Positions 14,795 through 59,245 of a stretch of DNA of 64,000 nt are shown here, piece by piece. Each line of letters opens with the position of its first letter. The stretch's first letter is position 1. The DNA is taken from contig JACOSU010000081.1 in the NCBI GenBank assembly GCA_016178685.1, positions 722 to 64,721 of the forward strand, read 5' to 3'. The position numbers and the translations under genes are program-made. Under the pieces are notes generated by a model. The model was not told the origin of the DNA, searched no databases, and saw nothing but the letters and a program-made list of their open reading frames with translations. This DNA comes from Candidatus Eiseniibacteriota bacterium (GTDB taxonomy: Bacteria; Eisenbacteria; RBG-16-71-46).

Positions 14795-14809
14795 AACGGA
14801 GGACCCTCG

Positions 14810-25167: not shown

Positions 25168-25476
25168 TGAAGCCTCGAGTTCTGGGGGTGAGGGCGCCTC
25201 GGCCGGGGGGCCGTGGAAGGCGAACGTGGGGTCGGCGGCGGGCGCACGTCGGTTGAGTTTATCACGTGCGCGTGCGCCAGTTCCACCGCGCGGCGAGGCG
25301 GGTTCGGGCGCGCAAATGGTAGAATGGAGAGCCCGCAGGCTCCCTGCGGGGCCACATCAACGCGAAGCCCGGGCCCCACCCCGTGCACGCCCCGCCCGAC
25401 GCAATCCGGCGGTTGCGCGCGGCGGCGTGTTGCGCCACCTTGGGCGGGATCGGAAGTGCTGCTCGAGGAGGCGTTC

Positions 25477-27195: not shown

Positions 27196-27347
27196 ATCGT
27201 GGGCGCCTGGACGAGGCGGCCCCGAGCACCTCGCCCGCCGGCGCCTCCGGTCGGCAGCGACGCCTTGCGGCTGCATTCGGCCCCGGCTAACGTAGGGTGC
27301 GTTTCGAACGCGCCACGCTGGCGGCGGCGGCGGCCCCGGCCATCGAG

Positions 27348-27938
27348 ATGGAGGAGACGGTGAAGCAGAAGCTTCCCCACTTTCGGGGGGCATTGGTCGA
27401 ATTGTTCGCCCGGATTCGGTGGAAGCTGCTGATGATGATGCCGAACGAGGGCCGGATTCGCGTGTTGCGGCAGCACGGCGTCCGCATCGGCGAGGATTGT
27501 CTGATCTACACCACACTGTTCTCGACCGAGCCGTATCTGGTCGAGATCGGCGACCACGTCGCGATCTCCTCGGGGACCAGCTTCGTCACGCATGACGCCT
27601 CGGGCTGGGTCTTCAGGGAGCACCCCAAGATGGATGTCTTCGGACGCATCCACGTGGGGAACAACACGTTTTTCGGCACCAGCTGCACGGTGCTGCCCGG
27701 CACGCAGATCGGTTCGAATTGCATCATCGGGTCGGGCTCGGTGGTGCGCGGGGTCATTCCCGACGATTCCGTCGTGTTCGGGAATCCAGCCCGGGTCATC
27801 ATGAAGACTTCATTGATGAAACAGCTGCTCGTGAATCACAAGCACCGGCTCGACACCAAGTACCTTCCAGCGAAGGACAAGGAAAAGGTTCTGCGGCGCC
27901 ACTTCGGGCTCCCGGAGACCGGATCCAGGGGGGAATGA
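27348..27938 (+). CDS. Hexapeptide-repeat acetyltransferase (WcaF/WbbJ-like).
   Basis: IGEDCLIYTTLFSTEPYLVEIGDHVAISSGTSFVTHD...IHVGNNTFFGTSCTVLPGTQIGSNCIIGSGSVVRGVIPDDSVVFGNPARV. Confidence 0.75.
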   Translation: MEETVKQKLPHFRGALVELFARIRWKLLMMMPNEGRIRVLRQHGVRIGEDCLIYTTLFSTEPYLVEIGDHVAISSGTSFVTHDASGWVFREHPKMDVFGRIHVGNNTFFGTSCTVLPGTQIGSNCIIGSGSVVRGVIPDDSVVFGNPARVIMKTSLMKQLLVNHKHRLDTKYLPAKDKEKVLRRHFGLPETGSRGE

Positions 27939-27941
27939 GTC

Positions 27942-28190
27942 TTGGCCTCGGATACCATGACGGAGATCCACGACTACGTGCGGATGGAGTTCGCGCCGGA
28001 GCGGGCATCGGTCGCTCCCGATGAGAATCTTCTGGCCCAGGGGATCGTCGATTCGCTCGGCATTCTCAAGCTCGTGACGTTTCTCGAGCAGCGATTCGGG
28101 TTCGAGGCCGCCGATGACGACCTGGTCCCCGAGAATTTCTCGACGCTCGAGATGATCCGGGATTTCGTGGAGAGGAAGAGGAAGCCCTGA
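27942..28190 (+). CDS. Acyl carrier protein (phosphopantetheine-binding).
   Basis: 77-82 aa, acidic, with the 4'-PP attachment motif LAQGIVDSLGILKLV. The start is TTG at 27942 (GGGGGGA 5 nt upstream) or ATG at 27957. Confidence 0.75.
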   Translation: MASDTMTEIHDYVRMEFAPERASVAPDENLLAQGIVDSLGILKLVTFLEQRFGFEAADDDLVPENFSTLEMIRDFVERKRKP

Positions 28191-28192
28191 CG

Positions 28193-29338
28193 ATGGATCT
28201 CTCGTTCACGCCCGAGCAGCTCGCCCTGCGCGGCGAAGTCGTCAAGTTCGCCCGCAAGGAGCTGAACGCCGGGCTCGTCGAGCGCGACCACCAGCAGGCG
28301 TTCTCACGCGAGGGCTGGGACAAGTGCGCCGCGATGGGAATCCATGGTCTGCCGTTTCCGCGCGAGCATGGCGGGTCGGGGGCCGACGTCCTGACCACGA
28401 TGCTGGCGATGGAGGGGCTGGGCTACGGCTGCCGGGACAGCGGGCTGATCTTCGCGATCAACGCCCAGATGTGGGCCGTGCAGATGCCGATCCTCAACTT
28501 CGGCACCGAGGAGCAGAAGCGCAGGTACCTGCCCCGCCTGTGCGGCGGCGAATGGATCGGCGCCCACGGCATGACGGAGCCGGGCTCGGGTTCCGATTCG
28601 TCGGCGCTCGCGACCACCGCGGTCCGACGCGGACACCGCTGGATTCTGAACGGAACCAAGACCTTCGTGACGAACGCGCCGATCGCCGACGTGTTCGTGG
28701 TGTTCGCCACCACCGACCGAGCGCGGGGCTTCATGGGCGTGACCGGCTTCGTGGTGGAGAAGGGCGCCCCCGGCTTTCACGTGGGCAAACCGATCGAAAA
28801 AATGGGCCTCAAGACCTCGCCGATGGCGGAGCTCGTCTTCGAAGACTGCGAGCTCCCGCTCGACGCCCTGCTCGGAGAGGAGGGCGGCGGCACGCGGGTG
28901 TTCAGTTCCTCCATGGAGTGGGAGCGCGGCTGCCTGCTCGCGAGTTCCCTGGGCGCCATGGAGCGCCAGCTCGAGACCTGCGTCGATTACGCCACGAACC
29001 GCCGGCAATTCAACCGCCCGATCGGCAAGTTCCAGTCGGTCGCGAACAAGATCGTGGACATGAAGGTGCGTCTCGAGACGTCGCGTCTCCTTCTTTACAA
29101 GCTCGCGTGGCTCAAGTCGGCCGGCGGAGAGGCCGTGATCGACGCCGCGATCGCGAAACTCCACTTGAGCGAGTCGTGGGTCCAGTCGTGTCTGGACGCG
29201 ATCCAGATTCACGGAGGCTACGGCTACACGACCGAGTTCGAACTGGAACGTGACCTGCGCGATGCGATCGCCGGCCGGATCTATTCGGGAACCTCCGAAA
29301 TCCAGCGGAACATCATCGCCGCGCAGCTTGGATTGTGA
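28193..29338 (+). CDS. Acyl-CoA (acyl-ACP) dehydrogenase family flavoprotein.
   Basis: GAHGMTEPGSGSD, ILNGTKTFVTNAP, QIHGGYGYT and the C-terminal catalytic E region. 381 aa, full ACAD architecture. Confidence 0.85.
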   Translation: MDLSFTPEQLALRGEVVKFARKELNAGLVERDHQQAFSREGWDKCAAMGIHGLPFPREHGGSGADVLTTMLAMEGLGYGCRDSGLIFAINAQMWAVQMPILNFGTEEQKRRYLPRLCGGEWIGAHGMTEPGSGSDSSALATTAVRRGHRWILNGTKTFVTNAPIADVFVVFATTDRARGFMGVTGFVVEKGAPGFHVGKPIEKMGLKTSPMAELVFEDCELPLDALLGEEGGGTRVFSSSMEWERGCLLASSLGAMERQLETCVDYATNRRQFNRPIGKFQSVANKIVDMKVRLETSRLLLYKLAWLKSAGGEAVIDAAIAKLHLSESWVQSCLDAIQIHGGYGYTTEFELERDLRDAIAGRIYSGTSEIQRNIIAAQLGL

Positions 29339-29356
29339 CGCCAGGGACCTAGGGAC

Positions 29357-30940
29357 GTGACGAGCTTCCTGCTCCAGCACCTGCTGATGGACGCCGCCCG
29401 GCGCGCGCCGGATGCGGCGGCGGTCCGCTTCGAAGAGGAGACGCTGAGCTACGGCGAGCTCGACCGGCTCTCCGATCGGCTGGCCCACGCGCTCGCCGCG
29501 CACGACGTGCGGCGCGGCGACCGGGTCGCGATCTACCTGCCGAAGTCCACGGCCTCGCTGATCGCGATCCATGGCATTCTCAAGGCCGGAGGCGTCTACG
29601 TGCCGCTCGATCCCGGCGCCCCGGTCCAGAGGCTCGCCTACATCCTGGAGGACTGCGGCGTGCGATGCGTCGTCGCGGCCAGCGCGAAAGCCGCCGCGAT
29701 CCGCACCATGGTCGAGGGGGGCGCGCGGGTGCGGACGGCGGTGTTCACCGACGATGGAGGTGATGCGGGCCTCGGAGACCTCGGGATTCAGACGGTGCCG
29801 TGGGCGCGCGTGCTCGGCGGCGCGGAGGTGGGGCCGCCCGTGATCGCGTCGATCGCGACCGATCTCGCCTACATCCTTTATACCTCGGGTTCCACCGGCA
29901 CTCCCAAGGGAGTGATGATTTCGCACCTCAACTCGCTCACGTGCGTCCACTGGGCCGCCGCGGAGTTCGGCGTCACGAAGGCCGACCGGCTCTCGAGCCA
30001 CGCGCCGTTTCATTTCGACCTTTCGATTCTCGACCTGTTCGTGGCGATGAAGGCCGGAGCGAGCGTGGCGCTGGTGCCGGATGGTACCTCGACGTTCCCG
30101 ATCCGGCTCGGCCAGTGGATCGAGAAGAACCAGATCACGATCTGGTATTCGGTCCCCTCGATCCTGACCCTGCTGCTGCTGAAGGGCCGGCTCGACCGGC
30201 TGGATCTCTCCTCCCTGCGCCATGTGCTGTTCGCGGGCGAAGTGTTCCCGAACAAGTACCTGGCCGCCGCGATGCGCGCGGTGCCGCACGCGGAGTTCGT
30301 CAACCTTTACGGCCCGACCGAGACCAACGTCATCACGTTCTATCGGGTGCCGGCCGCCCGCGGGGAGCAGGGCGAACCGATCCCGATCGGGCGGCCGTGC
30401 GCGAACGGCGACGTATTCGTGGTCGGCGAGGATGGGAAGGTGGTCACGGAGCCGGGCGTGACGGGCGAGCTGTTCGCGCGCGGCACGACGGTGGCGCTGG
30501 GTTACTGGGGCGACCCTGAGAAAACCGCTCGCGGTTTCCTGCAGAACCCGCATCAGATGGATTTCGCGGAGCGCGTCTATCGCACCGGGGACATCGTGTC
30601 GCTCGGGACCGACGGGAACTACCGGCTGCTGGGCCGCCGCGATCGCATGATCAAGAGCCGCGGCTACCGCATCGAGCTGGACGAGATCGAGATCATCCTC
30701 AACGCGCATCCTTCGATCCGGGAGGCGGCGGTGGTCGCGGTCCCGGACGAGTTGAGCGGGAACCGAATCCTGGCTTTCGTGGCGGGCACCGACGGCCGGG
30801 AGCTGAACGCCGGATTCCTGCGCGACTACTGCCTCGAGAGACTGCCGCGCTACATGGTGCCGGAGAGCTTCAATCTGCTCGACGAGCTTCCGAAGACTTC
30901 AACCGGGAAAATCGACCGCGCGCGGCTCGCGCGCGGATAG
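29357..30940 (+). CDS. AMP-dependent adenylating enzyme (amino-acid adenylation / acyl-CoA ligase-like; resembles the exosortase-associated AMP-ligase and DltA).
   Basis: LSYGELD, YILYTSGSTGTPKGV (A3 core), NLYGPTET, YRTGD and PKTSTGKIDR (A10 Lys). Confidence 0.85.
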   Translation: MTSFLLQHLLMDAARRAPDAAAVRFEEETLSYGELDRLSDRLAHALAAHDVRRGDRVAIYLPKSTASLIAIHGILKAGGVYVPLDPGAPVQRLAYILEDCGVRCVVAASAKAAAIRTMVEGGARVRTAVFTDDGGDAGLGDLGIQTVPWARVLGGAEVGPPVIASIATDLAYILYTSGSTGTPKGVMISHLNSLTCVHWAAAEFGVTKADRLSSHAPFHFDLSILDLFVAMKAGASVALVPDGTSTFPIRLGQWIEKNQITIWYSVPSILTLLLLKGRLDRLDLSSLRHVLFAGEVFPNKYLAAAMRAVPHAEFVNLYGPTETNVITFYRVPAARGEQGEPIPIGRPCANGDVFVVGEDGKVVTEPGVTGELFARGTTVALGYWGDPEKTARGFLQNPHQMDFAERVYRTGDIVSLGTDGNYRLLGRRDRMIKSRGYRIELDEIEIILNAHPSIREAAVVAVPDELSGNRILAFVAGTDGRELNAGFLRDYCLERLPRYMVPESFNLLDELPKTSTGKIDRARLARG

Positions 30941-32095
30941 GCGCCGACCGGCCCGCTGCTTCCGCACATGCGCGACCACGCGGTCGAGGATCTCGCTCAG
31001 CCGATCGTAGATCATATCGGGCGCATGATTCGAGGTCACGTAGGAGCGAGCGCGCGCTCCCGCGGCGCGGCGCGCCTCGGGGTCCGAGAGCAGCCGGCCG
31101 ACTTCGCGCACGAGTTGCGGGTACTCCGAGACCAGGGCTCCCAGGCCCTGCCGCGTGACGAGCGCGTCCGGATCCACCGCGGACACGGTGGGCAGCCCGC
31201 ACGACCACGCCTCGAGCATCACGTTCGAAAAACCTTCGACCGGCGAAGTGTGCACCAGCAGCGACGCTCCCGCGAACAGCTCCGCGATCCCGGTGGGATC
31301 GACGAAACCGCGCACCGAGAGATTCGGGGTTCGATTCGCGGCCTCCTGCGCTCGGCCCCAGTGCTCCCGCGTGAGTGGCGGCGGTGGGATCACGCCCGCC
31401 ATCACGAAGCGGCGATCCGGGAACTCGCGCGCAAGATCGGTGAACCACTGCGGTCGCTTGATGTCCTTGTACGTGCCGAGCCACACCACCGTGCCGTCCT
31501 GCCCGGAATCGACCGCGTGCGCGGGAATTTCGACCACGTTGTGCAACACCTGGCTGTCGAGTCCGAACTCGAGGCGCAGACTCCGGCCCTGCGCTTCGGT
31601 CTGGGCGATCCGCAGATCGGCCTGTTTCAGCGCCCGCCGGTACCACACGCGATCGAGGATGCTCGGCTGCCGGGGCAGACTCGCGATCACCTCGTAGTCG
31701 CTCGCGACGTGCAGCACGAATCCCGCGCGGCGGGAGCGCGCCATGTCGAACGTGATCCCGGACGGCACTCCGGAGCCGTTCACGTAATACACCTCGGCGT
31801 CGGCGCGACGCAGAGCCGCAATCGAACGAGTCAGCCGCGGGTGGAAGAACCGCACCACCGGGATTGGGCTCACGAGCCGGAACGAGCGCAGCACGAGGAT
31901 GCCGTCGATCACGAGGCGCTCGGGTTGTCCGAAATCGCACGTCACGATGCTCACGTCGAAGCCGCGCGCCTGGAGCCCGCGCGCCAGCTTCAGCTGCTGG
32001 GTTTCCGCGCCGCCCGCGAATTCGACCCGCGGGCCGCTCCCGAGCAGCGGGAACAGGTACTCGCAGTTGAAACAGATGCGGCCCCGCCCGCTCAC
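30899..32095 (-). CDS. GT4 family glycosyltransferase.
   Basis: GT-B C-terminal domain with the EGFSNVMLEAWSCGLPTVSAVD motif. GTG start overlaps the upstream stop (GTGA). The 3' end overlaps the convergent adenylation gene by ~40 bp. Confidence 0.75.
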   Translation of the reverse strand: MSGRGRICFNCEYLFPLLGSGPRVEFAGGAETQQLKLARGLQARGFDVSIVTCDFGQPERLVIDGILVLRSFRLVSPIPVVRFFHPRLTRSIAALRRADAEVYYVNGSGVPSGITFDMARSRRAGFVLHVASDYEVIASLPRQPSILDRVWYRRALKQADLRIAQTEAQGRSLRLEFGLDSQVLHNVVEIPAHAVDSGQDGTVVWLGTYKDIKRPQWFTDLAREFPDRRFVMAGVIPPPPLTREHWGRAQEAANRTPNLSVRGFVDPTGIAELFAGASLLVHTSPVEGFSNVMLEAWSCGLPTVSAVDPDALVTRQGLGALVSEYPQLVREVGRLLSDPEARRAAGARARSYVTSNHAPDMIYDRLSEILDRVVAHVRKQRAGRRLSAREPRAVDFPG

Positions 32096-33216
32096 GAAGC
32101 CCACCGCTCGAGCGCGGCTTCGAGTCGCGGGCGCACCTGCTCCCACGCGTACTCCAGGGCGGTGCGTCGTCCGCCTGCCGCGAGCCGGTCCGCGAGCTCC
32201 GGATCCCGGATCAGCCGCTGAAACGCCGCCTTGAGCGCGGCGGGATCATCGGGCGGGATCAGGAGTCCGTTCTCCTCGTGGCGCACCAGGTCGCGAACCC
32301 CCGCGACCGGCGTCGCGATCACCGGCCGGCCGAACGCCATCGCTTCGAGCAGCACGTTCGGCAGCCCCTCGCCCTTGCGCGCCGCCAGCACCACGAAGGC
32401 GCTCTCCCGATAGAGAGTCGCCAGGCGCTCACGCTCCACGAATCCTTCGAAGCGCGCGGGCACGCCGCGCGCTCGAGCCAGCGCCTCGAGCCGCGCGCGC
32501 TCCGGCCCGGTGCCGGCCACCACCAGCGGGAACGCGAGTCCGGCCGAGGCATCGATCACGGTGTCCATGCCCTTGTCGCGGATCAGCCTCCCGACCGCGA
32601 GCACGCATGAGCCCCGGCGAGCGAGCGTGTCTGCCCGGGGAAGATCGAGCCCGTTCGGCACCACCTCGAGATGCGCTTCGACCGTTCGCCGCGTCCCGGG
32701 CGCGAAGCGCTCCATCTCGCGCAGCAGGGCGGCCCGGTTCTCCTCGCTCTGCACCAGCACGCCGTCCGCCTCCCGCCAGACGCGCGGGCCGACCCAGCGC
32801 GCCCACCGGGAATCCTCCAAGCGATACTCCCCCTCGCCGCGGATCCAGACCACCGCCGGGATACCGAGCCGTCTCTTGAGTCGCACGCCGGCATAGCCGC
32901 TGATGAAGGTCTGGAAGCACAGCACGACATCGGGCCGCGGCTTGAGCGCCGTCACCGCGCGCGTGATCGCCGAGAGGTCCCGCACCGCGCGCCACAGCGG
33001 CACTCCCGAGAGCGGCAGGCGCATCACGGTGAATCCGTCGCGTCGCTCGGTGCCGGGCGGCGCGGGCGGCTCCCGCCGCGTCACTACGGTCACGCGATGG
33101 CGGTCCGAGAGGCGGCGCGCCCAGCACTCGGCCTGATGCTCGGCTCCGCCCAGCGCGCCGGGTGGAAAACGCCCGATCAGGATCGCGATGTGGAGCGGTC
33201 GGATCGAATCGTTCAC
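32092..33216 (-). CDS. GT4 family glycosyltransferase.
   Basis: N-terminal HIAILIGRFPPGALGGAEHQ. C-terminal GEGLPNVLLEAMAFGRPVIATPVAGVRDLVRHEENGLLIPPDD. GTGA overlap with the upstream methyltransferase. Confidence 0.8.
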   Translation of the reverse strand: MNDSIRPLHIAILIGRFPPGALGGAEHQAECWARRLSDRHRVTVVTRREPPAPPGTERRDGFTVMRLPLSGVPLWRAVRDLSAITRAVTALKPRPDVVLCFQTFISGYAGVRLKRRLGIPAVVWIRGEGEYRLEDSRWARWVGPRVWREADGVLVQSEENRAALLREMERFAPGTRRTVEAHLEVVPNGLDLPRADTLARRGSCVLAVGRLIRDKGMDTVIDASAGLAFPLVVAGTGPERARLEALARARGVPARFEGFVERERLATLYRESAFVVLAARKGEGLPNVLLEAMAFGRPVIATPVAGVRDLVRHEENGLLIPPDDPAALKAAFQRLIRDPELADRLAAGGRRTALEYAWEQVRPRLEAALERWAS

Positions 33217-34166
33217 GTCACCAGGTCCGTGATTTCGCTGCCGCCGCCGGCGTGCTGCTCCACCCGCAGCTGATTCCCGACCCGGCGGAACATGGTTCCG
33301 CGATTCGTCGGCCGGTCGCTTCCGGTGCGGGTCACGAGCAGGAGGCCCCCTTCGATCAGACGCGCGCTCAGGGCCTGCACCATGCGGCGGATCGTGTCGG
33401 AGCCAAAGTATCCGAGATTCAGGATGTTTGCGGCGCGGATGATCGCGAAGGAGCCGGTGAGCGTGGGCCGCAGGATGTCCTCTTCGTGAAAGTGAACGCC
33501 CGGGACATCTTCAGCCTCCGGCGAGATCAGCGATACGCTGGACAACGCATAGCCGGCGAGCGGCTCGTGCAGCGCGACACGGAAGCGCCTCACGTCTTCC
33601 CGCATCAGCCGCCGCGCGAGCGCATAGAAATGCGGGCGCAGCACCAGATCGCGAGGCCGGAACCTCCACGGAGATGCCCAGCCGCCGACCTCGATCTGAA
33701 TCACCTGCTGGTCGGCGTCGAACAGCAGATTGCAACCATCGACACGACGGACATGGCGGGCGGAGATCATCAGGTCCGTGCCCCACGCCTCGCACGGGAT
33801 TCCAGCCGCACTGAAGGCTCTATGCATCTCGACGGTCGAGATTCCCGAGGAACAGGCCACGTCGAGAACGCGCAGCGGGAGGCGCTCGAGGTCGCTCGCG
33901 AGGCGGACCAGCATCGGAAACAGGTCGTTCATGCGGTTCGGGAGCGTGGCCTTGTACACGCCGTTGCGCAGCACCAGGCTCTGGAAGAACTCGTGCTGAA
34001 TCTCGGCGTTTCCGGACCGGCAGGCCTCCCGGTATTCTGCCACCGGAATGCAGCGCGCGTCACCGTGTGGCCCGAACCGGCGCAGGACATCCCGCAGCGT
34101 GACGGCCGTCCACATGTCGGGACGCATTGCGTGACGCGCCAGCGTGTGCACACCAGGATTGATCAC
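33213..34166 (-). CDS. Class I SAM-dependent methyltransferase.
   Basis: Motif I is LRVLDVACSSGISTVEM and motif II-like is LLFDAD. GTG start at 34166 overlaps the upstream stop (GTGA), with GGAGG just upstream. Confidence 0.65.
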   Translation of the reverse strand: MINPGVHTLARHAMRPDMWTAVTLRDVLRRFGPHGDARCIPVAEYREACRSGNAEIQHEFFQSLVLRNGVYKATLPNRMNDLFPMLVRLASDLERLPLRVLDVACSSGISTVEMHRAFSAAGIPCEAWGTDLMISARHVRRVDGCNLLFDADQQVIQIEVGGWASPWRFRPRDLVLRPHFYALARRLMREDVRRFRVALHEPLAGYALSSVSLISPEAEDVPGVHFHEEDILRPTLTGSFAIIRAANILNLGYFGSDTIRRMVQALSARLIEGGLLLVTRTGSDRPTNRGTMFRRVGNQLRVEQHAGGGSEITDLVT

Positions 34167-36890
34167 CGCTCCTCCCCCTCGCTCGCGGCCCGGGGCCGCG
34201 GTTTTTCCACGCGCGGCGGGTGCATCGACGCGCCCGCCGCACTCAGCACCGCAGCATAGCATCGCGGCTCGGAGACGTCGCGGCGCGCCACGCTCCGGCG
34301 GGCGACCCGGAAGAATCCGACCGGCAGTCCCGAGAAGTAATCGTTGTCGAAGAAATAGTCGCTGAGCCGCAGGTTCGCATAGTGCGGCTGGCGGATCATG
34401 CGCGCCTGGACCTGGTAGTCGCCGTTCGCGACGTCGAGCGGCACGACCAGAGAAAACGAGTCGCGCACCGCCTGATCCGGCGTCCAGAGGTCCACGCCGT
34501 ATTCGCCGCCGACCGGCAGATGATCGGCGCGGAAACGATAGCGCTCGTGATGAAGGCGCTCGATCAGCTTGCGAAGCGGCTTCGAAATGCACGCGGGCGG
34601 CGTGAATCCGCCCGGCAGCGGGCGATCGAATCGCACTGCGATCTGGTAGGAGCCGGCCGGCAGGCGCTCGATGGCCCGCCACACGATCACGCCGCGCACC
34701 GTGTCCCCGGGGGCCGCGACGCGGGGGGAGAGAGCGAAACCGAGCAGCGCCGGGGCCCCGGGCGCCACGCGCCGCGCGATGCCGTCCGTCCCGGGCCGGT
34801 AGCGGTTCACGAACGGGCGCGACGCGACGGGGGTGCGCAGCGTGTCGAGCGCGGCACGATGGACCCAATACACCACGAAGTCGCCGCGGTCGTACACGCG
34901 CTCGAACGCCGAAGGGAAGCGATCGAGCCGCCCCCGTTCCTCAACGAACCACTCCGGCCGCGGGGTCCAGTAGTCGAGCGCCGGCACCTCTGCAAAGCGC
35001 CGGTTGAGCGCGATCGCGTCCACGCCGTAGCGTGCCAGCAGGGCGCGCATGCGGGCCCAGTCTCCGAATGGGTCGAGCGCGTCGCGCGCATCGAGCAGGC
35101 GGCGGAGCGCCTGGGGGTCGCTCGGCGAGCTGTGCTGATCGAGCAGGGTGACCACGTAGTCGTGCGTCATCATGGGGACCGCGTAGCTGGTCAGGGGATC
35201 CGACAGCACGACGCTCCCGCGCGGCAGGTGGGCATCCATCCACTCGAGATCGGCGCGCCAGACCAGAGGGCTCAGGCGCCGTTCGTCGGCCGCGATCTCA
35301 CCGGAGTGCCGCGCGACCCGCGCCGCATCGAGCAGGGCGGGAGCGAGCAGCAACGCGACGGCGCCGAGCTGCGCGGCGGCCATCCCGCGCGCGCGCGGCG
35401 CGCCGGAACGCAGATCGGCGATCAGTCGGGGCAGCGCCCAGGCCACAAGGGCGGCCAGCGGCGTCATCCACACCACGCGCATCAGCAGATACCCGACGCG
35501 GGGCTGGAGCACGCTCACCACCGGCGGCACGAACAGGATCGTCCCGACCGCGGCCGCCGTGGTGAGCAGGAACAGCGCGGCCGCATCGCCGCGTCCCTCT
35601 CGCCACAGCCGGGGCGTGAGCATCGGAAACAGCAGCCATGCGCTTCCCATCCAATCCCACAGCACGCCCGGCGAGACCACGCGGACGCCGTCCCACAGCG
35701 TCAGCAGACCCTGGGCCTCGGTGTGAATGGGGTTGACCGGCGCCGGGGTGCGCAGCAGCTGCCACAGGGCGAACGGCGCCACCGCTCCTCCCACGGCGAG
35801 AGCGGTGCCGATCAGCCGTCGCAGCGACGGACCGATCCCACGCTCGCGCAGCGCGAGCCCCGCTGCGAGCGCCGAGAACACGATCGCGAACTGAAGCGCG
35901 GCGAACACGTGGGCGGCGACCGCCCCGATCGCGAGAGCGGCCGCGGCTAGCCGTGTGCCGCGCGACGGCCGGGCCAGATCCGCGAGCACCGCGACCGCGG
36001 TCGCCAGCGCGAGATGGTCGGCGAGCTTGGCGGCGTACACCGTCTCGCGCATCGGGGTCGATGCGAGCGAGCCGCCGTAAGTGAGAAGCAGCGCCCAGGC
36101 CGCGAACGCCGCTCCCGGGCCGCCCGCGAGCAGAGCGCCGAACGCCGCGACGTTGAGGATCAGGAGCGGCGAGAGCAGGATCGGCAGGTCGCGCCACGCG
36201 ACCAGCGGCGTGACTCGCGCGATCACCGCGATCAGCGCGGCCTCGCCGTGCCACAGGAACTTTCGCGGATCCACGCCGGCCCCGCCCGCATCGCGGAAGA
36301 ACGCGTCGTTCGGAAACAGCACCCCGTGCTCGAGCATGCGGCGGATGGTCCCTACGTGATCGGGCGAGTCCGAGACGTAGTGGAGCGGCGCACCCAGTCG
36401 CGCCGCGTACGCGCATGCGCACAGCGCCGCCAGCATCGTGAGCGCGAGGGCCGCACCCGCCGGCGCTTCCGGGGCGGATTCCCGGTGCCCCCCCGCGAGC
36501 GGCGCGGTCTCCCGTTCGAGCGCGGTCACGACCTCCCGGGCCACGCCGCCCGAACGGCGCGCCAGCACCACCGCCCACAGCAGCGCGTTCGCGGGCAGGA
36601 GGGCGGTCGCCAGGTGCGTGAAGGGAACGCGCGCGATCGCGCACAGCGACAGCAGCACCGCGTTCCATGCCACGCCGAGACCCAGCGCCCAGCCCGGGGC
36701 GAGCCACGGGCCGCCCGGTGGCCGCGCGTGGAGCAGCTTCAGCCACGCGAAGCCCGGGACGAGCAGCAGCGTGATCCCGGTCAGAACCACGCGCAGCGCG
36801 GGCGGGCACGATGCCAGCAGCCCGGCCGCGAGCGCGGCCTGGAGCAGCAGCTCGCCCGACAACGCGATCAGCGTCGACCGAGTTCTCATG
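34163..36890 (-). CDS. Very large (909 aa) polytopic membrane protein of unknown function: ~14 TM helices plus a ~330 aa C-terminal extracytoplasmic domain.
   Basis: The track ORF 34163..38479 (1438 aa) is a chimera. The real start is the ATG at 36890, which overlaps the Wzx stop (ATGA). The C-terminal domain is rich in W/Y/D (DYWTPRPEWF, YFFDNDYF). No recognisable catalytic motif. Confidence 0.55.
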
Positions 36891-38400
36891 CGTCCGCGGA
36901 GTCGGCGCGCCGCATCCAGGCCGGACGCAGATCCGTCATCATCTGCCGCAGCCCGGTGCCGCGCCCAAACGGATAGGCCAGCACCGAATAGAGCGGCAGG
37001 AACAGCGCGAGTTCCACGAGCATGTGCCCGGCGTGCGCGGTCAGGCTCTCCGCTCCGGGCCACGGCACCAGGCGATCGATGCCGAACGCGAGTCCATAGC
37101 TGATCGCGAGCGGCATGAAGGTCCTGAGCACACGCGCCGGCACGCCCCGCGTGGTGCCGCGCAGGCCGGCGAACGCCATCCAGCTCATCACCACTCCGTT
37201 GAGCACGTACGCGATCAGGGTGGCGCACGCCACGCCGGTGATGCCGGATCCCAGCCGCACCGCCACCAGGTCGAGCGCGGCGCCGAGCAGGGATCCCGCG
37301 AGCGCCACCGGGACCAAGAACGCCTGGCGCCGCAGCGTCATCAACACGATCGCCGAGAAGCCGACGAACGCGATTCCACCCGCCCCGAAGCACATCAGAC
37401 GCAACGCCGGGAGCCCCGGGAGGAACTTCGGCAGCAGCACGAACATCAGGTCCCGCGACCACAGAAACGTCACGCCGCACAGCACCGGCGTCATCACGGC
37501 CAGCGTCTGGTAGGTGCGCTCGACCTGGGAGCGCACCGCCTCGGGCCGGTCCCCGCCCTCCCGGTAGCGCTTGAGCAGCTGCGGATAGAGCACGAAGCTC
37601 ACCGAGTCCGGAAGGTAGAGCAGCAGCGTCATGGCGGTCACGGCCAGGCTGTAGTAGCCGAGCGAAATCGTGTTGAGACACTTGATGATGATGACGCGGT
37701 CGAGCGATCGCAGGATGACGGACGCCGAGTAGAGGTACATCGGGGCGCCGGCGCGCAGCAGCGCCAGGCATTCCGAGGAAGCCTGCGGGGCGAACGGCGC
37801 GATGTGCCGCGCCTGCCATTGGCTGACGATCGAAGCGATCACGGTGCCGACCAGCCAGCCGCCGAGCAGCGCCCACATGCCGAACCGGGGCATCAGGGCC
37901 AGCGCGAGGCCCGCTCCGATCACGCCCTGCACCAGGTACCAGCCGCTCACCGCGGTCATGTTGTTGTGCGCCCGCAGCAGATTGATGCGGTAGGAACCCA
38001 GGTTGCTGAGCACCACGCAGACGCCGGCCACGATCATGCCCCGCATTCCCCAGAAGTACTTGATCTTTCCGTTCGAGAACGTGAAATAGACCACGGTTCC
38101 GATCGCGTAGAGCGACGAGAGCAGCAGCACGTTGAACAATCCCGAACTCTTGGTGCGCCGGATCGCCTCCGCATCGCCGTCCACCAGCCGTGGCGGCAGC
38201 GTCTGGTCGAGACCCTGAAACGTGCCCGCGGTGGCGAGCATGCCGTAGTCCATGACCAGCTGGATGGCGTTCCACGCCCCGTAGGTGACCGGGCCCAGCA
38301 GGCGCGCCGCGATCAGCCCGCGCGCCATGAGCAGCACGCGGAAGACGTACTGGGAGGTCGCGAAGAAGATGGAATCCCGCAGAAACCTTCGTGGGTGCAT
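36886..38400 (-). CDS. MOP-superfamily polysaccharide biosynthesis protein (Wzx-type oligosaccharide flippase).
   Basis: The start MHPRRFLRDSIFFATSQYVFRVLLMARGLIAARLLGPVTYGAWNAIQLV is the canonical Wzx/polysacc_synt N-terminus. 12-14 TM helices. Confidence 0.75.
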   Translation of the reverse strand: MHPRRFLRDSIFFATSQYVFRVLLMARGLIAARLLGPVTYGAWNAIQLVMDYGMLATAGTFQGLDQTLPPRLVDGDAEAIRRTKSSGLFNVLLLSSLYAIGTVVYFTFSNGKIKYFWGMRGMIVAGVCVVLSNLGSYRINLLRAHNNMTAVSGWYLVQGVIGAGLALALMPRFGMWALLGGWLVGTVIASIVSQWQARHIAPFAPQASSECLALLRAGAPMYLYSASVILRSLDRVIIIKCLNTISLGYYSLAVTAMTLLLYLPDSVSFVLYPQLLKRYREGGDRPEAVRSQVERTYQTLAVMTPVLCGVTFLWSRDLMFVLLPKFLPGLPALRLMCFGAGGIAFVGFSAIVLMTLRRQAFLVPVALAGSLLGAALDLVAVRLGSGITGVACATLIAYVLNGVVMSWMAFAGLRGTTRGVPARVLRTFMPLAISYGLAFGIDRLVPWPGAESLTAHAGHMLVELALFLPLYSVLAYPFGRGTGLRQMMTDLRPAWMRRADSADA

Positions 38401-38516
38401 GGGGGGAGTTCCGATCAGCCCGCGCGGCCGCGGCGGGACACCTGGCGGGCGGCGGTTCGCTCGCATAGTATTGAAGCACTCATGCACATCCATTCGACCC
38501 GTTTTCCCTCACGATC

Positions 38517-39725
38517 GTGAAGCTCAACACCCCGGGGACGCTCGCTTCGGACGGCGGCACGCCGGTGCGTTCCACGTTTCTCCCGCTCGCCCTGCCGTCG
38601 ATCGGCGAATCCGAAAAGCGCCGCGTCATCGAGACGCTGGAGTCGGGCTGGATCACGACCGGCCCGCGCTCCCACGAGCTGGCGACCCGGGTCGCGGAGC
38701 TGGCCGGCGCGCGTCACGGCCTCGCGGTGAATTCGGCGACCGGCGCCCTCCACCTCGCGCTCGCGGCGCTCGGCGCGGGCGCGGGCGACGAGGTCATCAC
38801 CTCCACGTACACGTTCGCGGCGTGCGTCAACGTGATCGAGCACGTCGGCGCGACCCCGGTGCTGGTGGACGTCGAGGCCGACACCCTTTCGCTCGATCCC
38901 CAGGCGGTCGAGGCCGCGATCACGCCGCGCACCCGTGTGATCCTCCCGGTCGATTACGCCGGGCATCCGTGCGCGATCGAGGAGATCGTGGCGCTGGCCC
39001 GCTCGCGCGGGTTGCGCGTGGTCGAGGATGCCGCGCATGCGCTGGGAGCGGCGTGGCGCGGTCGTCCGATCGGCTCGTTCGCGGACATCACCGCGTTCTC
39101 GTTCTACGCCACCAAGAACCTGACCACCGGCGAGGGCGGCGCGGCGGTCACGGACGACGAAGCGCTGGCCGAGCGCATGCAGGTGCTGTCGCTGCACGGC
39201 ATGAATCGAGACGCGTGGAAGCGTTACGCGGACACCGGATCGTGGTACTACGAAGTCGTCGCGCCGGGATTCAAGTACAACCTGAGCGATGTGCTGGCGG
39301 CGATCGGGCTCGGCCAGCTCGAACGCTTCACCGAGATGCAGCGGCGCCGTTCCGCGCTGGCGGTGCGCTACCACGCCGCTCTCGCCGAGGTGCCCGAGGT
39401 GCGGCGCCCCATCACGCGCGAGGGAGCCACTCACGCGTGGCACCTGTATCCGGTCGCGCTCCAGCTCGAACGCCTGAGCTGCGATCGCGCGCGCTTCGCG
39501 CGCGAGCTGCGAGCCGAGAACATCGGGTCTTCCGTGCATTTCATTCCGATCCACTTCCATCCCCATTTCCGCGACACGCTTCCCTACCGGGCCGGCGCCT
39601 TTCCGGTGGCCGAGGAGGCCTACCGCCGCGCGCTCACGCTGCCGCTCTACCCGGCCATGACCGACCGCGACGTCGACGACGTGGTGGCCGCGGTTCGCAA
39701 GATCGCGCGGCATTTCCGGGCCTGA
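38517..39725 (+). CDS. DegT/DnrJ/EryC1/StrS family PLP-dependent sugar aminotransferase.
   Basis: TGPRSHELATRVAELAG, DEVITSTYTFAA and FSFYATKNLTTGEGG (PLP-binding Lys). Length ~400 aa. Confidence 0.85.
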   Translation: MKLNTPGTLASDGGTPVRSTFLPLALPSIGESEKRRVIETLESGWITTGPRSHELATRVAELAGARHGLAVNSATGALHLALAALGAGAGDEVITSTYTFAACVNVIEHVGATPVLVDVEADTLSLDPQAVEAAITPRTRVILPVDYAGHPCAIEEIVALARSRGLRVVEDAAHALGAAWRGRPIGSFADITAFSFYATKNLTTGEGGAAVTDDEALAERMQVLSLHGMNRDAWKRYADTGSWYYEVVAPGFKYNLSDVLAAIGLGQLERFTEMQRRRSALAVRYHAALAEVPEVRRPITREGATHAWHLYPVALQLERLSCDRARFARELRAENIGSSVHFIPIHFHPHFRDTLPYRAGAFPVAEEAYRRALTLPLYPAMTDRDVDDVVAAVRKIARHFRA

Positions 39726-39747: not shown

Positions 39748-40743
39748 TCACCGGGAGGCCTCGCCCAGTGAGCGCAGCGACAGACCCTCGCGATTCAGGT
39801 ACCAGAGTCCGACCGCTGTGATCGGAAGCCACTGGCTCGCGAAGTAGAACCAGGAGAACGGCACCGCGGCCTCCTTCCCGACGTGGAACAGCGCGAGCCC
39901 CGCCACGCACGCCAGATTCAGCGTGCCGATGTAGCCGGGCGCAGCCGGCACCATGATCCCGATCGCGGTGATCACCAGCATGATGAGCCCGCCGTACCAC
40001 GCGATCTGGATGTGCAGCGCTGCCATGCTGATCGTGAGCCCCAGGGAGAAAGTGAGGAACATCACGAACGACAGAAAAAACACCCAGGACAGGCGCTTGA
40101 GATCGCGGAACAACCCGAGACCTTCCAGAAAGTGATCGAGCGCCCGCGTCACGCGTTCGCGAGCCGAGGCCGGCAGGAACCCGGCGGTCCAGCCGATCAT
40201 CGCGTGCGCGAGGCGCGGCTGGCGCTCGAGCGCCACCACGAACGCCGTGAGCGCCACGCTCAGCAACAGCAGCAGGCCGGCGCCGGCCTGCACCATGCGC
40301 CCGGCCTCGGTGTCGCCGCGCAGTGGATAGACCGCGAGCGCCATGCCGAGAATCGCAAGCAGCGTCAGCATGTCGACCGCGCGCTCCACCACGACGGTGG
40401 CGAGCAGCGTGGTCTTCGAAAGACTCTCGCGCCGCGCCAGCGCCCACGGCCGCACGAACTCACCGAGCCGGAACGGGAGCACGTTGTTCGCCATGAACCC
40501 GATCATGGTGGCGCTGAACAGGCTGCCGGTGCCGATCCGTCGCGGAGCGGTGATCAGCGAACGCCATCGCACCGCGCGAATCCAGAATCCCGCGAGCGTG
40601 ACCGCCATGACACCGATGAAGCCCCAGTAATTGGCGTGTCGCAGCGCCGCTCCCACCTCACCCACGTGAATGTCGCGCATCGAGATCCAGACGCACACCG
40701 CCGAGATCGTGAGGCCCACGAGCAGCCGGACGAGGCGGTTCAC
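39748..40743 (-). CDS. UPF0104 / LPG_synthase_TM-like (flippase-like domain) membrane protein.
   Basis: VNRLVRLLVGLTISAVCVWISMRDIHVGEVGAALRHANYWGFIGVMAVTLAGFWIRAVRWRSLI, then 6-8 further TM helices. GTG start overlaps the DUF2304 stop (GTGA). The N-terminal ~90 codons of the track ORF were rejected. Confidence 0.6.
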   Translation of the reverse strand: MNRLVRLLVGLTISAVCVWISMRDIHVGEVGAALRHANYWGFIGVMAVTLAGFWIRAVRWRSLITAPRRIGTGSLFSATMIGFMANNVLPFRLGEFVRPWALARRESLSKTTLLATVVVERAVDMLTLLAILGMALAVYPLRGDTEAGRMVQAGAGLLLLLSVALTAFVVALERQPRLAHAMIGWTAGFLPASARERVTRALDHFLEGLGLFRDLKRLSWVFFLSFVMFLTFSLGLTISMAALHIQIAWYGGLIMLVITAIGIMVPAAPGYIGTLNLACVAGLALFHVGKEAAVPFSWFYFASQWLPITAVGLWYLNREGLSLRSLGEASR

Positions 40744-41120
40744 GCGTTCCCCCGCGGGACACCGGCCGGGCCGCGCAGGGATTCGATCTGGTTCTGCAGC
40801 AGCCCCAGTTCGCGGGTCAGAACGCGATTCTCGCGGCCGAGACGCGACATCTGGATCGACATGTAGAGCAGCATCACGACCCCGAACGTGACTCCGAACG
40901 CGAACGCGGTCGAGCTTTCGTAGAGAATGCCCATGGCCCGCGTGATCGCCTGAAGCAGCGGCGTACTGAACCCGAGCGCTGCCATCGCGAGCGACGACAC
41001 CACCCACAGCAGTGAGTATTCCTCGGAAAGCCGGCGGCGGCGCACCAGCTCCAACACGATCAGCACCAGCGCCACCGCGCCGAACGCGAAGATCGCCTGG
41101 GTGCGCGAGAGAAAGTGCAT
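40740..41120 (-). CDS. Small membrane protein (DUF2304-like), GT2 partner. Paralog of 14810..15211.
   Basis: 126 aa: MHFLSRTQAIFAFGAVALVLIVLELVRRRRLSEEYSLLWVVSS...LTRELGLLQNQIESLR. Same architecture as the plus-strand copy. Confidence 0.55.
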   Translation of the reverse strand: MHFLSRTQAIFAFGAVALVLIVLELVRRRRLSEEYSLLWVVSSLAMAALGFSTPLLQAITRAMGILYESSTAFAFGVTFGVVMLLYMSIQMSRLGRENRVLTRELGLLQNQIESLRGPAGVPRGNA

Positions 41121-41131
41121 GGAACCCTCCT

Positions 41132-41842
41132 TCAGCGGGCCTGCGGACGCCGCAACATCGCCATGAGCGACGCGAGCAGGTTCTTGTACGGGTAATACAG
41201 CGATTTTCCGAGCGTGTAAAACGAACGGCCCGCGCGCCGCTCGCGCATGTGGGCCGGCACTTCGCACAGCCGGAACCCGGAGCGCGCCAGCGCGATCAGC
41301 AGCGGCGCGTCGGGAAAATCGTGAGGCAGATCGTGCTGGAACGCTTCCATGACTCCGCGCGAGTAGGCCCGGAACCCCGACGTGGTATCCGCGATCGCGT
41401 TCCCGATCGCGAGCCCCGTGACCGCCGAGAACAGCCGCATGCCGAGCCGGCGCGTGGCGGGCGCCTGATACCCGGTCGGAGTCCGGTAGCGCGATCCGAT
41501 CGACACGTCGAAACGACCGGCCAGCACCGGCTCGACCAGCACCGCGAGATCGGCGGGATCGTGCTGGCCGTCCGCGTCGAGCTGCACCGCGGCCTGGTAG
41601 CCTCGCGCGAGCGCGTACCGGAACCCGGTCTGGAGCGCGCCGCCCACGCCCAGATTCACGACGTGCCGCACGACCGGAACGCAGAGGGCGCGGGCGACGG
41701 CGCCCGTCGCATCGCGCGAACCGTCGTCCACCACCAGCAGGTCGAACTCGGGCGCGAGGTCGCGCACCTCGGCGATCGTGCGCGGCAGACTCTCCTCTTC
41801 GTCGTGGGCCGGGATCACGATGAGGCAACGCGCGCCGCTCAT
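41132..41842 (-). CDS. GT2 family polyprenyl-phosphate glycosyltransferase (DPM1/GtrB-like). Paralog of 13113..13919.
   Basis: MSGARCLIVIPAHDEEESL, LLVVDDGSRDAT and QLDADGQHDP. ATG at 41842 overlaps the flippase stop (ATGA). The upstream 370 codons of the track ORF were rejected. Confidence 0.8.
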   Translation of the reverse strand: MSGARCLIVIPAHDEEESLPRTIAEVRDLAPEFDLLVVDDGSRDATGAVARALCVPVVRHVVNLGVGGALQTGFRYALARGYQAAVQLDADGQHDPADLAVLVEPVLAGRFDVSIGSRYRTPTGYQAPATRRLGMRLFSAVTGLAIGNAIADTTSGFRAYSRGVMEAFQHDLPHDFPDAPLLIALARSGFRLCEVPAHMRERRAGRSFYTLGKSLYYPYKNLLASLMAMLRRPQAR

Positions 41843-43416
41843 TCCGCCCCCCGCGGCTCGGACGAGGGCACCAGGCGGCCCGCGGCCGCCACCAGCCCAT
41901 CGCGCGAGCGCCGCAACCATGCCCCCTGCACCGGCAACGACGAGAGTTTCTCGAGGTCGTAGCCGGTCACGAGCTGCAGCGCGAACAGCGCGAACACGCC
42001 GAGCGGCACCAGAGCGAGTCGCGCCGCGAAGCTCCAGCCGAAGATCGGCGGCCGGTCGAGCAGCAGGCCCGCCACCAGCAACGGCACGGTGACCGCGATC
42101 GCGGTCAGGGCCGCGCGCGCGCGGTCGGCCGCGCCTTCGCGCACCATGCGCGACAGAAGAACCAGCGCCGCGATGTACGAGACCACCGCTCCCGCGAGAT
42201 TGGCCCAGCCCGCCCCCATCATTCCGACCGTCGGGACCAGCGCGAAGTAACAGCTGAACTCGGTGCCGAACTTGATCAGCGCCAGGGTCAGCACGGTGCC
42301 GGGCCGGCGCATCGCCTGGAACAGCATGGTGAGGGGCTGCTGGGCGGTGCGCGCAATCGGAACCAGCGCCATCACGCGCAGCAGCGGCACCGCCGGCAGA
42401 AACAGCGGGCTTCCGACCAGCAGCGTGAGCTCGCGCGCGAACACGAACACTCCGAACGAGAGCACGCAGGCCGCGACCTGGATCAGCCGGAACGCCTGGT
42501 CGAACACGTTGCGCAGTCGCTGGCGTTCCTCGCGAGCGACCAGATGAGTGAGCGAGGGCAGCAGCGAGGAGGGAAGCGTGTGCGCCAGTTCGATGAAGCG
42601 CTCCAGGGTCTGAAACGCGAACGAGAAGTAGCCGAGCTGCGCCGAATCGAACAGCTTTCCGAGCACCACCTTGCCGAGATTCTGGCCCGACAGGAACGTG
42701 ATGCGCGCGCCGAGCAGCGGAAGGCAATACGCCGTGATCGAGCGCATCAACTCGCGCGGCCCGGCTTCGGGCTCGTCCGCCCGGTTGTCCCCGCGACGCA
42801 GCAGCCACAGCAGCACCAGCGTGCTCACGATGCCCTGCACGACCGTGAGCACGGTGAGCCCGACCGCCAGAGCCGCAAGACCCTGTCGCGTGAACCACAG
42901 CAGACCGACCATCAGCGTCTTCAGCACATGAAACACCACCGCCAGCAGGCATACCCATCCGAAGCGCTGCATGCCGTAGAGCGCCGCGCGCCCGGTGGTC
43001 GAGAACCCGTCGAACACCACCATCAGCGTGAGGAGCGGCAGCAGCATCGCGAGATCGGGGGTATGAAACTGGCCCGCGAGCACCGGCGAGATCACGAGCA
43101 GCAGCGCGCCCGCCACCGCGCCGAGCGCGAGTTTGAATCCGAGTGCCAGCAGGTGCGCCCGCCTGAGCGTCCGCAGCGCGCCTCGCGCCTGGTATTCGGC
43201 GGCGAATCGTTCGAGGTAGGTTTCGAAGTTGCCGGTCGCCATGGTCGCGAGCCCGGCGAACGAAAGCGCCAGCGTCATGATCCCGTACTTGGTGGGGCCC
43301 AGCCAGCGCAGCAGGAGCGCGAAATACATCGTGCCCGAGACCAGCGCCGCGACCTTTTCGATCGCGAGATAGAAAGCGCCCCGCGAGACGCTGCGCGCGA
43401 TTTCTCCGCTCTTCAT
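41839..43416 (-). CDS. MOP-superfamily polysaccharide biosynthesis protein (second Wzx-type flippase).
   Basis: The N-terminus SRGAFYLAIEKVAALVSGTMYFALLLRWLGPTKYGIMTLALSF is typical of polysacc_synt. 14 TM helices. Confidence 0.75.
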   Translation of the reverse strand: MKSGEIARSVSRGAFYLAIEKVAALVSGTMYFALLLRWLGPTKYGIMTLALSFAGLATMATGNFETYLERFAAEYQARGALRTLRRAHLLALGFKLALGAVAGALLLVISPVLAGQFHTPDLAMLLPLLTLMVVFDGFSTTGRAALYGMQRFGWVCLLAVVFHVLKTLMVGLLWFTRQGLAALAVGLTVLTVVQGIVSTLVLLWLLRRGDNRADEPEAGPRELMRSITAYCLPLLGARITFLSGQNLGKVVLGKLFDSAQLGYFSFAFQTLERFIELAHTLPSSLLPSLTHLVAREERQRLRNVFDQAFRLIQVAACVLSFGVFVFARELTLLVGSPLFLPAVPLLRVMALVPIARTAQQPLTMLFQAMRRPGTVLTLALIKFGTEFSCYFALVPTVGMMGAGWANLAGAVVSYIAALVLLSRMVREGAADRARAALTAIAVTVPLLVAGLLLDRPPIFGWSFAARLALVPLGVFALFALQLVTGYDLEKLSSLPVQGAWLRRSRDGLVAAAGRLVPSSEPRGAE

Positions 43417-59000: not shown

Positions 59001-59245
59001 CGCTCGCGCGCGATGATCGCCTCGAGGTACTCGGGCGTGAGAGGCTCGACATAGGTCCGGTCCGCGAGTTCAGGGTCGGTCATGATGGTGGCCGGATTCG
59101 AATTCACGAGCACGACCTCGAACCCCTCGGCCTTCAGGGCCTTGATGGCCTGCGTGCCGGAGTAGTCGAACTCGCAGGCCTGGCCGATCACGATGGGACC
59201 GGAGCCCACGGTCAGGATCCGCTTCAAATCACGGCGACACGGCAT
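56030..59245 (-). CDS. carB: Carbamoyl-phosphate synthase large subunit.
   Basis: 1071 aa, with the two ATP-grasp halves ([24 protein letters not shown]... and [25 protein letters not shown]...) and the MGS-like C-terminus. Confidence 0.95.

Follow-up and report, generated by a model that had tools for sequence, protein, structure and literature searches.

A GT-C-fold, DUF6541-related membrane protein proposed as the transferase of an envelope-polysaccharide glycosylation module in Candidatus Eiseniibacteriota

Here, we consider a 64,000-nucleotide stretch of DNA from a Candidatus Eiseniibacteriota bacterium (the window; positions 722 to 64,721 of contig JACOSU010000081.1, assembly GCA_016178685.1) and, within it, one minus-strand gene at 34163-36889. 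Its 908-residue product is identical to NCBI entry HYR73_04015, a “hypothetical protein” from a Candidatus Eisenbacteria metagenome-assembled genome (MAG). HYR73_04015 is a polytopic membrane protein with a GT-C glycosyltransferase fold, related to the DUF6541 family. We propose, with rather more confidence than doubt, that it faces the periplasm and moves a sugar or short oligosaccharide from a polyprenyl-monophosphate carrier onto an envelope polysaccharide. By analogy with the GacIJKL and WpsABGJ systems, HYR73_04015 would most likely be the transferase of a four-component extracytoplasmic glycosylation module housed in a Wza/Wzc-type cluster.

The fold assignment comes from structure prediction. 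An AlphaFold2 model built with a 41-sequence alignment packs both domains of the protein into one structure (predicted local distance difference test, pLDDT, 90.6; predicted template modeling score, pTM, 0.90), and all 22 hits with E <= 1e-3 in a Foldseek search against the PDB are GT-C proteins (DPY19, STT3, AftA, AglB, and PglB). AftD, AftB, and EmbA appear beside AftA among the other structural matches, whereas no Wzy or WaaL structure was among the matches listed. The membrane core superposes on solved GT-C structures (321 to 370 of 548 membrane-domain residues align), and the C-terminal globular core has the fold of the oligosaccharyltransferases STT3, AglB, and PglB (GT66). Based on this model, we regard the GT-C assignment as secure. 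The original prediction, which was made from the sequence alone, had named a GT-C-like transferase as one option and structure prediction as a check; the check now lends that option strong support.

The membrane domain (residues 1-545; 35255-36889) contains about 15 helices in the model, close to the roughly 14 first counted. Arg-rich loops at about residues 111-145, 307-313, 350-358, 429-437, and 493-501 alternate on one side of the membrane, and by the positive-inside rule the N terminus is therefore predicted to be cytoplasmic. This topology, read from the sequence, would put the C terminus outside and would place the C-terminal domain and the loops that carry D174, D207, R209, H327, and R471 in the periplasm. 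By definition, GT-C_A proteins have two helices in the first luminal loop, with the catalytic base on the leading one (PMC13503287), and a membrane core that comprises a conserved 7-helix module plus a variable module. The candidate for this hallmark loop 1 in HYR73_04015 is its first long loop, predicted to be periplasmic (residues 166-235; 36185-36394), with helices at 175-188 and 212-234 and four helices ahead of it. Because only part of the membrane domain aligns with known GT-C structures, the N-terminal four helices (residues 1-128; 36506-36889) are probably an extension to the canonical core; distant homologues likewise align only from about residue 130-170 onward.

Conservation, computed across 47 sequences at 21-52% identity, converges on the same loops. 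D174, D207, R209, H327, P455, and R471 are invariant in the membrane domain, and D177, H178, H214, H389, and Q393 are conserved in at least 90% of sequences. D174 opens helix 175-188, in a conserved D174-S-P-D177-H178 motif (36356-36370; coordinates checked by translation) at the start of the first loop-1 helix. On the basis of this position in the model, D174 is our candidate catalytic base. Could the protein instead be a noncatalytic membrane scaffold or co-polymerase that has merely kept a GT-C fold, as PIG-U or GAB1 has in the glycosylphosphatidylinositol transamidase? A scaffold, also among the options first listed, would suit a protein that is always embedded in Wza/Wzc clusters. However, Asp, Arg, and His are invariant at the expected active-site positions across the full range of identity, the acidic and basic invariants cluster where GT-C active sites lie, and catalytic GT-C enzymes score roughly twice as high in the structural comparison. 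We consider the scaffold reading extremely improbable.

The soluble part of the protein has two modules. A periplasmic alpha/beta domain (residues 555-680; 34850-35227) resembles the central core of the oligosaccharyltransferase C-terminal domain and holds the invariant residues D564, T567, H586, P589, and D591; after its first strand comes a conserved S-D564-P-x-T567-S-Y569 motif (35183-35203). It is followed by a beta-sandwich that resembles carbohydrate-binding modules (residues 694-866; 34292-34810), in which K770, R773, and W802 are invariant. The C-terminal region had been described as rich in Trp, Tyr, and Asp, which overstates its composition: residues 561-908 are 13% R, 11.5% A, 9% P, 7.8% D, 4.3% Y, and 1.7% W. 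The last 42 residues (867-908; 34166-34291) form a disordered, nonconserved tail with a pLDDT below 50. The closest relative ends before this region, and a 92-nucleotide intergenic gap stands in its place; the tail seems to have arisen by read-through in this lineage, which would have produced the overlap with the following gene.

The beta-sandwich raises the question of whether transfer is processive. Emb and AftD carry carbohydrate-binding modules, which the C-terminal sandwich of HYR73_04015 parallels, and AftA, AftD, AftB, and EmbA are among the structural matches. An Emb/AftD-type polymerase would draw on a polyprenyl-phosphate sugar again and again, one residue at a time, and so assemble a homopolymeric side chain or domain rather than a single decoration. 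Nothing in the sequence separates single from processive transfer, and we think it very unlikely that the protein is a processive enzyme of this type.

The gene model itself is well delimited. HYR73_04015 runs from an ATG at 36889-36887, which sits in GCATGAGAAC, to a TGA at 34165-34163 (the stop codon being included in the coordinates above). Its start overlaps the TGA (36888-36886) of an upstream Wzx gene in an ATGA at 36886-36889, and its stop overlaps the GTG at 34166 of a downstream 317-residue gene (GTGA). Both overlaps had been recognized at the outset, with the start (36890) and the length (909 residues) each off by one. Because the window is about 69% GC, long spurious open reading frames (ORFs) are common in it, and one such frame of 1438 codons spans 34163-38479 on the minus strand. 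Codon-position GC switches frame at about 36880 and again at about 34150: downstream of 36880, third-position GC is 0.85-0.93 in the frame of HYR73_04015, whereas upstream of that point only the frame of the 535-residue gene at 36886-38493 shows high values. The first 530 codons of the 1438-codon ORF are therefore an artifact of a 70% GC genome, as had been suspected. A split into two genes was considered and rejected on the basis of an unbroken coding frame, full-length homologues of 850-880 residues, and a single compact AlphaFold model. A downstream ATG start for the 317-residue gene, which would abolish the overlap, was also rejected, since the homologue of that gene in locus L007 keeps the same N terminus and so backs the GTG start.

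Does the overlap with the flippase gene mean that the two proteins work together? Four-base overlaps also join Wzx2 to GT2, DUF2304 to LPG_synthase_TM, Wzx1 to HYR73_04015, HYR73_04015 to the 317-residue gene, and the 317-residue gene to the first GT4 gene. The translational coupling pointed out earlier is thus real at both ends of the gene; however, since four-base overlaps link most genes here, coupling is a property of the operon and not specific to HYR73_04015. The association of Wzx1 with HYR73_04015 is real, as its recurrence in other loci shows (below), and published systems account for it: the Wzx flippases GacK and WpsG serve the GT-C enzymes GacL and WpsJ.

HYR73_04015 was initially described as an orphan with no assignable motif, and on both counts its family says otherwise. 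There are at least 197 homologues at 50-74% identity, nearly all of 850-880 residues, and a profile search of 1.84 billion cluster representatives returned 1320 at E <= 1e-3 and 304 at E <= 1e-30, most of about 850 residues and most spanning both halves of the protein. Among GTDB species genomes, 91 loci were detected, almost all in Eisenbacteria (here called Eisenbacteria-type loci), with a distant clade, 24-30% identical to HYR73_04015, in Krumholzibacteriota and related MAGs. The family is uncharacterized yet widespread in two uncultured phyla. By profile comparison, HYR73_04015 is a divergent relative of Pfam DUF6541 (PF20176): it scores 19.5 bits (E 3e-4, residues 41-580), below the gathering threshold of 29 bits, and the same model matches 19 of 41 family members (best E 6.6e-10). 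One homologue is named “DUF6541 family protein” by NCBI. DUF6541 is itself an uncharacterized family for which Pfam records no function, and its model covers the membrane domain only, whereas HYR73_04015 also has the C-terminal domains.

Other searches found no closer kin. PDB sequence searches with the protein and with the family profile gave nothing meaningful, an NCBIfam search with the protein found no family, and neither DUF6541 nor the pairing of Eisenbacteria with exopolysaccharide turned up any paper in literature searches. Among the 41 members, none matches Pfam STT3 (PF02516) at E <= 1, and neither these members nor HYR73_04015 itself matches PMT_2/ArnT (PF13231) or Wzy_C (PF04932). 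Comparison of the family profile with two PMT_2 proteins of the window by hhalign gave probabilities of 0.4% and 3%, in what is a weak test with a single sequence on one side.

If the sequence does not name the substrate, do the neighbors? In the order of transcription, the block reads Wzx2, GT2, DUF2304, LPG_synthase_TM, DegT (on the opposite strand), Wzx1, HYR73_04015, the 317-residue gene, GT4, and GT4, so that all four components of the published systems (GT2, DUF2304, Wzx, and GT-C) lie in one minus-strand operon, 41842-34163. The GT2 (41132-41842, minus; PF00535) has 236 residues and no hydrophobic segment and resembles polyprenyl-phosphate-sugar synthases of the GacI/PpgS/ArnC type: its best NCBIfam match is PpgS, a polyprenyl-phospho-GalNAc synthase (97 bits, below the cutoff), AglJ is also among its best matches, and ArnC and Dol-P-Man synthase are its best PDB sequence matches. 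The DUF2304 gene (40740-41120, minus; PF10066, E 2e-18) encodes a small protein with three hydrophobic peaks, a GacJ/WpsB-like candidate activator of the GT2. Wzx1 (36886-38493, minus; Polysacc_synt_3, E 3e-12) is a MOP-family flippase and a candidate GacK/WpsG equivalent. Together with the positive-inside topology, the PpgS/ArnC-like GT2, DUF2304, Wzx, and flippase-like genes suggest, indirectly and by analogy, that HYR73_04015 may use a polyprenyl-phosphate-linked donor on the extracytoplasmic face.

We therefore speak of the following mechanism as a proposal. On the cytoplasmic side, the 236-residue GT2 and its DUF2304 helper would charge polyprenyl phosphate with a sugar, possibly an amino sugar made with the DegT aminotransferase, and the two GT4 enzymes may extend the lipid-linked sugar. 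A flippase, for which Wzx1 and/or the LPG_synthase_TM protein are candidates, would carry it to the periplasmic leaflet. HYR73_04015 would then pass the sugar on to an acceptor polysaccharide, using D174 as the putative catalytic base, with R209, H214, H327, and R471 holding the phosphate, and with the oligosaccharyltransferase-core-like domain and the beta-sandwich holding the acceptor. In the distant clade, an ArnE/F-like EamA protein would fill the place of the flippase candidates.

The rest of the block fits around these genes as follows. LPG_synthase_TM (39748-40743, minus; PF03706, E 9e-49; TIGR00374) encodes a flippase-like domain protein that is conserved in Eisenbacteria-type loci, and the DegT-family sugar aminotransferase gene (38517-39725, plus; PF01041, E 3e-127) has an ArnB-like protein as its best match (NCBIfam ArnB, 390 bits, below the cutoff). 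Downstream of HYR73_04015 lie two conserved genes for cytoplasmic glycosyltransferases, GT4a (32092-33216, minus; Glycos_transf_1, E 8e-33) and GT4b (30899-32104, minus; Glyco_trans_1_4 and Glyco_trans_4_4), and directly upstream of the GT2 is a second MOP flippase gene, Wzx2 (41839-43416, minus; Polysacc_synt, E 6e-21). The 317-residue gene (33213-34166, minus) had been labeled a methyltransferase; it is possibly an S-adenosylmethionine (SAM) methyltransferase, with matches that are all subthreshold (CheR, E 0.007; a PDB SAM methyltransferase, E 0.66). The Wzx1 ORF begins with a Pro/Arg-rich stretch of about 31 residues before its second Met, and the true start may be that downstream ATG (MHPRRFLRD...).

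Synteny of the block extends to 29 Eisenbacteria-type loci whose flanks reach at least 6 kb. Upstream of the HYR73_04015 homologue, 46 of 51 Eisenbacteria-type loci carry a Wzx1 homologue, directly adjacent in about 20-25, a result that bears on the proposed check of whether homologues always neighbor Wzx or MOP flippases. The slot after HYR73_04015 is variable: it usually holds an Asn-synthase-like gene, and the methyltransferase-like gene, far from being a fixed partner, is found in the window and in 3 of about 50 fetched loci. The Wzx-GT2 order persists in the distant clade; of the 15 loci there that were counted as carrying the small EamA-like gene, 14 read Wzx, GT2, a 122-residue EamA (ArnE/F-like), the HYR73_04015 homologue, and GT4, preceded by PGT, Wza, Wzz, AAA_31, and Phosphodiest genes. 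In the fifteenth locus, L078, about 5 kb separate the HYR73_04015 match from the GT2, and no match to the small gene was found there.

Given the structural likeness to GT66 enzymes, is HYR73_04015 an oligosaccharyltransferase in all but name? Oligosaccharyltransferases such as AglB and STT3 use diphosphate-linked oligosaccharides as donors. In such a scheme, an oligosaccharyltransferase-, ligase-, or Wzy-like GT-C enzyme would take a repeat unit linked to undecaprenyl diphosphate (Und-PP) from the coupled Wzx and transfer it en bloc to a protein, to a lipid or glycan anchor, or to a growing chain. The overlap of the Wzx stop with the start of HYR73_04015 is consistent with this scheme, as is the structure of both domains, which is closest to AglB and STT3 by a modest margin over ArnT; D174, D177, H178, H327, and H389 could form a metal site of the kind that serves the diphosphate leaving group in oligosaccharyltransferases. 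The distant-clade loci also hold PGT, Wza, Wzc, Wzx, and GT4 genes, with no Wzy_C annotated within 10 kb in one of them (L088) and a homologue of the window's Wzy_C detected in only one (L078). On the other hand, the WWDYG motif is absent from HYR73_04015, no WWD occurs in any family member inspected, and SDPxTSY (VVLSDPLTSY in HYR73_04015) would occupy the equivalent position. A separate Wzy_C gene is present in the window and in some other loci. Moreover, a GT2 resembling polyprenyl-monophosphate-sugar synthases and a small membrane partner always accompany HYR73_04015 and its homologues, which is the signature of monophosphate-donor systems. On balance, we rate en bloc transfer from a diphosphate carrier as possible but rather unlikely.

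A more specific version of that scheme would make the family a GT66-derived GT-C lineage that lost WWDYG, was recruited to Wza/Wzc export, and transfers or polymerizes whole Und-PP repeat units from the coupled Wzx. We find this version distinctly unlikely; if true, the family would be a Wzy or ligase equivalent in Eisenbacteria and Krumholzibacteriota lineages. The novel polymerase first suggested for this gene is also less probable in its Wzy-like form: a canonical Wzy_C gene stands at 7886-9346 in the window, a polymerase or ligase role is therefore already filled, and we downgraded the reading of HYR73_04015 as the sole Wzy polymerase accordingly.

We return to our preferred reading, transfer from a polyprenyl-monophosphate donor. 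The greater structural likeness to oligosaccharyltransferases counts against it, as do several other observations. The catalytic role of D174 is argued from position. No sequence link to any characterized GT-C family was found in the PDB searches or in the hhalign comparison with two PMT_2 proteins. Four GT2 genes and three other GT-C (PMT_2) genes in the window make the pairings of synthase and transferase ambiguous. The GT2 beside HYR73_04015 is not orthologous between the two clades, so the GT2 that feeds the protein is uncertain: in the distant clade, this GT2 shares 58-62% identity with the one beside Wzy_C in Eisenbacteria-type loci (7215-7889 in the window) and only about 24-29% with the GT2 at 41132-41842. 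Finally, the host is known as an uncultured MAG.

The wider setting is one envelope-polysaccharide synthesis supercluster of about 48 kb (1431-48839). Outside the block described above, it contains a Bac_transf initiating enzyme, a deacetylase, an acyl-activation module, and Wzz, AAA_31, and Wza genes. Its four GT-C-fold genes are HYR73_04015 and PMT_2 genes at 5370-7001, 18241-19893, and 25456-27195; with them are four GT2 genes for polyprenyl-phosphate-sugar-synthase-like proteins of about 230 residues, two DUF2304 genes, two Wzx genes, Wzy_C, a PGT, and Wza/Wzc. This inventory suggests several parallel periplasmic glycosylation branches.

A number of side observations belong to the same region. 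Immediately ahead of Wzy_C, and overlapping it, is a GT2 of the Dol-P-hexose-transferase type (7215-9346 for the two genes, plus), a pairing that recurs in L005 (18779-20904); since the orthologous GT2 adjoins the HYR73_04015 family in the Krumholzibacteriota-type clade, partner genes have been swapped between the clades. A trio of GT2, polysaccharide deacetylase/DUF3473, and DUF2304 genes (13209-15211, plus) recalls ArnC, ArnD, and ArnE/F and could serve to synthesize a lipid-linked amino sugar and to deacylate it ahead of flipping; its deacetylase has homologues in 21 fetched loci. The stretch 27297-30940 (plus) encodes a hexapeptide acyltransferase, a possible acyl carrier protein (an ORF of 82 residues), an acyl-CoA dehydrogenase, and an AMP-binding enzyme; this set, which also occurs in L007, may form an acyl-decoration module for an amino sugar. 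An uncharacterized polytopic protein of 712 residues (10978-13116, plus) has about 10 hydrophobic peaks, no Pfam match, and conservation in 16 loci, with a counterpart at 17654-19672 in L001; genes of 680-703 residues without a Pfam match near the HYR73_04015 homologue in L002 and L003 may be related to it. At 43433-45813 (minus), a Phosphodiest gene (PF01663) is a very constant neighbor in both clades, always between Wzc and Wzx; a 413-residue protein without a Pfam match or membrane segment goes with it in most Eisenbacteria-type loci and was detected in only 3 distant-clade loci. Farther along, a carbamoyltransferase gene (53055-54833) lies near the large and small subunits of carbamoyl-phosphate synthase (56030-60423), with two flanking GDSL-like lipase genes, and these genes may serve carbamoylation of a glycan.

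What would our proposal mean for the family? It would give a function that is open to testing to a set of “hypothetical” or DUF6541 proteins that numbers about 1300 cluster representatives in two uncultured phyla. On this proposal, the four-component logic of periplasmic glycosylation known from streptococci and lactococci would also operate inside the Wza/Wzc-type clusters of these lineages. In addition, an oligosaccharyltransferase-like body without WWDYG could inform how the acceptor domains of GT-C enzymes diversified.

Set against known systems, HYR73_04015 shares features with four. With AglB, STT3, and PglB (GT66), it has a common plan, in which a polytopic N-terminal domain leads into a globular C-terminal domain outside the cytoplasm; unlike them, it has no WWDYG, no recognized DK or MI motif, no Pfam STT3 match, and four extra N-terminal helices, and its context is polysaccharide assembly with monophosphate-sugar synthases instead of protein glycosylation. 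With the Wzy_C family (Wzy and WaaL), the likeness is that of a polytopic membrane protein beside Wzx in a Wza/Wzc cluster; in contrast to that family, HYR73_04015 has no PF04932 match, and the genuine Wzy_C gene lies elsewhere in the window. With the ArnT system, it shares an ArnB-like DegT aminotransferase and an ArnC-like GT2 as neighbors, and the GT2, EamA, and HYR73_04015 trio of the sister (distant) clade mirrors ArnC, ArnE/F, and ArnT. However, ArnT/PMT_2 proteins have no sequence homology to HYR73_04015, which also has a large C-terminal periplasmic domain and whose setting in an exopolysaccharide- or capsule-type cluster points to an acceptor other than lipid A.

The nearest parallel, drawn from gene set and fold, is with GacL and WpsJ. 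In Streptococcus pyogenes, GlcNAc-P-undecaprenol is the product of the GT2 GacI, to which the DUF2304 protein GacJ (three membrane helices) binds as an activator; the Wzx-family GacK is the proposed lipid flippase, and the GT-C protein GacL transfers GlcNAc to polyrhamnose (bioRxiv 10.1101/180810). Such arrangements have been named four-component glycosylation systems, and in the complex Lactococcus variant (WpsA/B, WpsC-F, WpsG, and WpsJ), cytoplasmic glycosyltransferases extend the C55-P-sugar before it is flipped and transferred by the GT-C enzyme; it is by fold, in the absence of any shared sequence conservation, that the GT-C components are recognized (PMC9574508). (A paper on a protein named WpsJ in Actinoplanes was set aside, as it concerns an unrelated Wzy-like protein.) Like GacL and WpsJ, HYR73_04015 is a polytopic GT-C protein encoded with a GacI-like GT2, a DUF2304 protein (GacJ/WpsB), and a Wzx-family flippase, and its predicted site of action on an acceptor polysaccharide lies beyond the cytoplasmic membrane; the two GT4 enzymes of its block recall the extra cytoplasmic glycosyltransferases alongside WpsJ. 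The differences are those of size and setting. GacL has 12-13 membrane segments, whereas HYR73_04015 has 908 residues, about 15 helices, and a soluble domain of about 310 residues; its locus has an additional LPG_synthase_TM flippase-like gene; and the GacL and WpsJ hosts are Gram-positive organisms with rhamnan, whereas the host here belongs to an uncultured lineage with Wza/Wzc export genes. In total, HYR73_04015 represents a new, uncharacterized family of a known type of enzyme in a known type of system, not a new kind of system.

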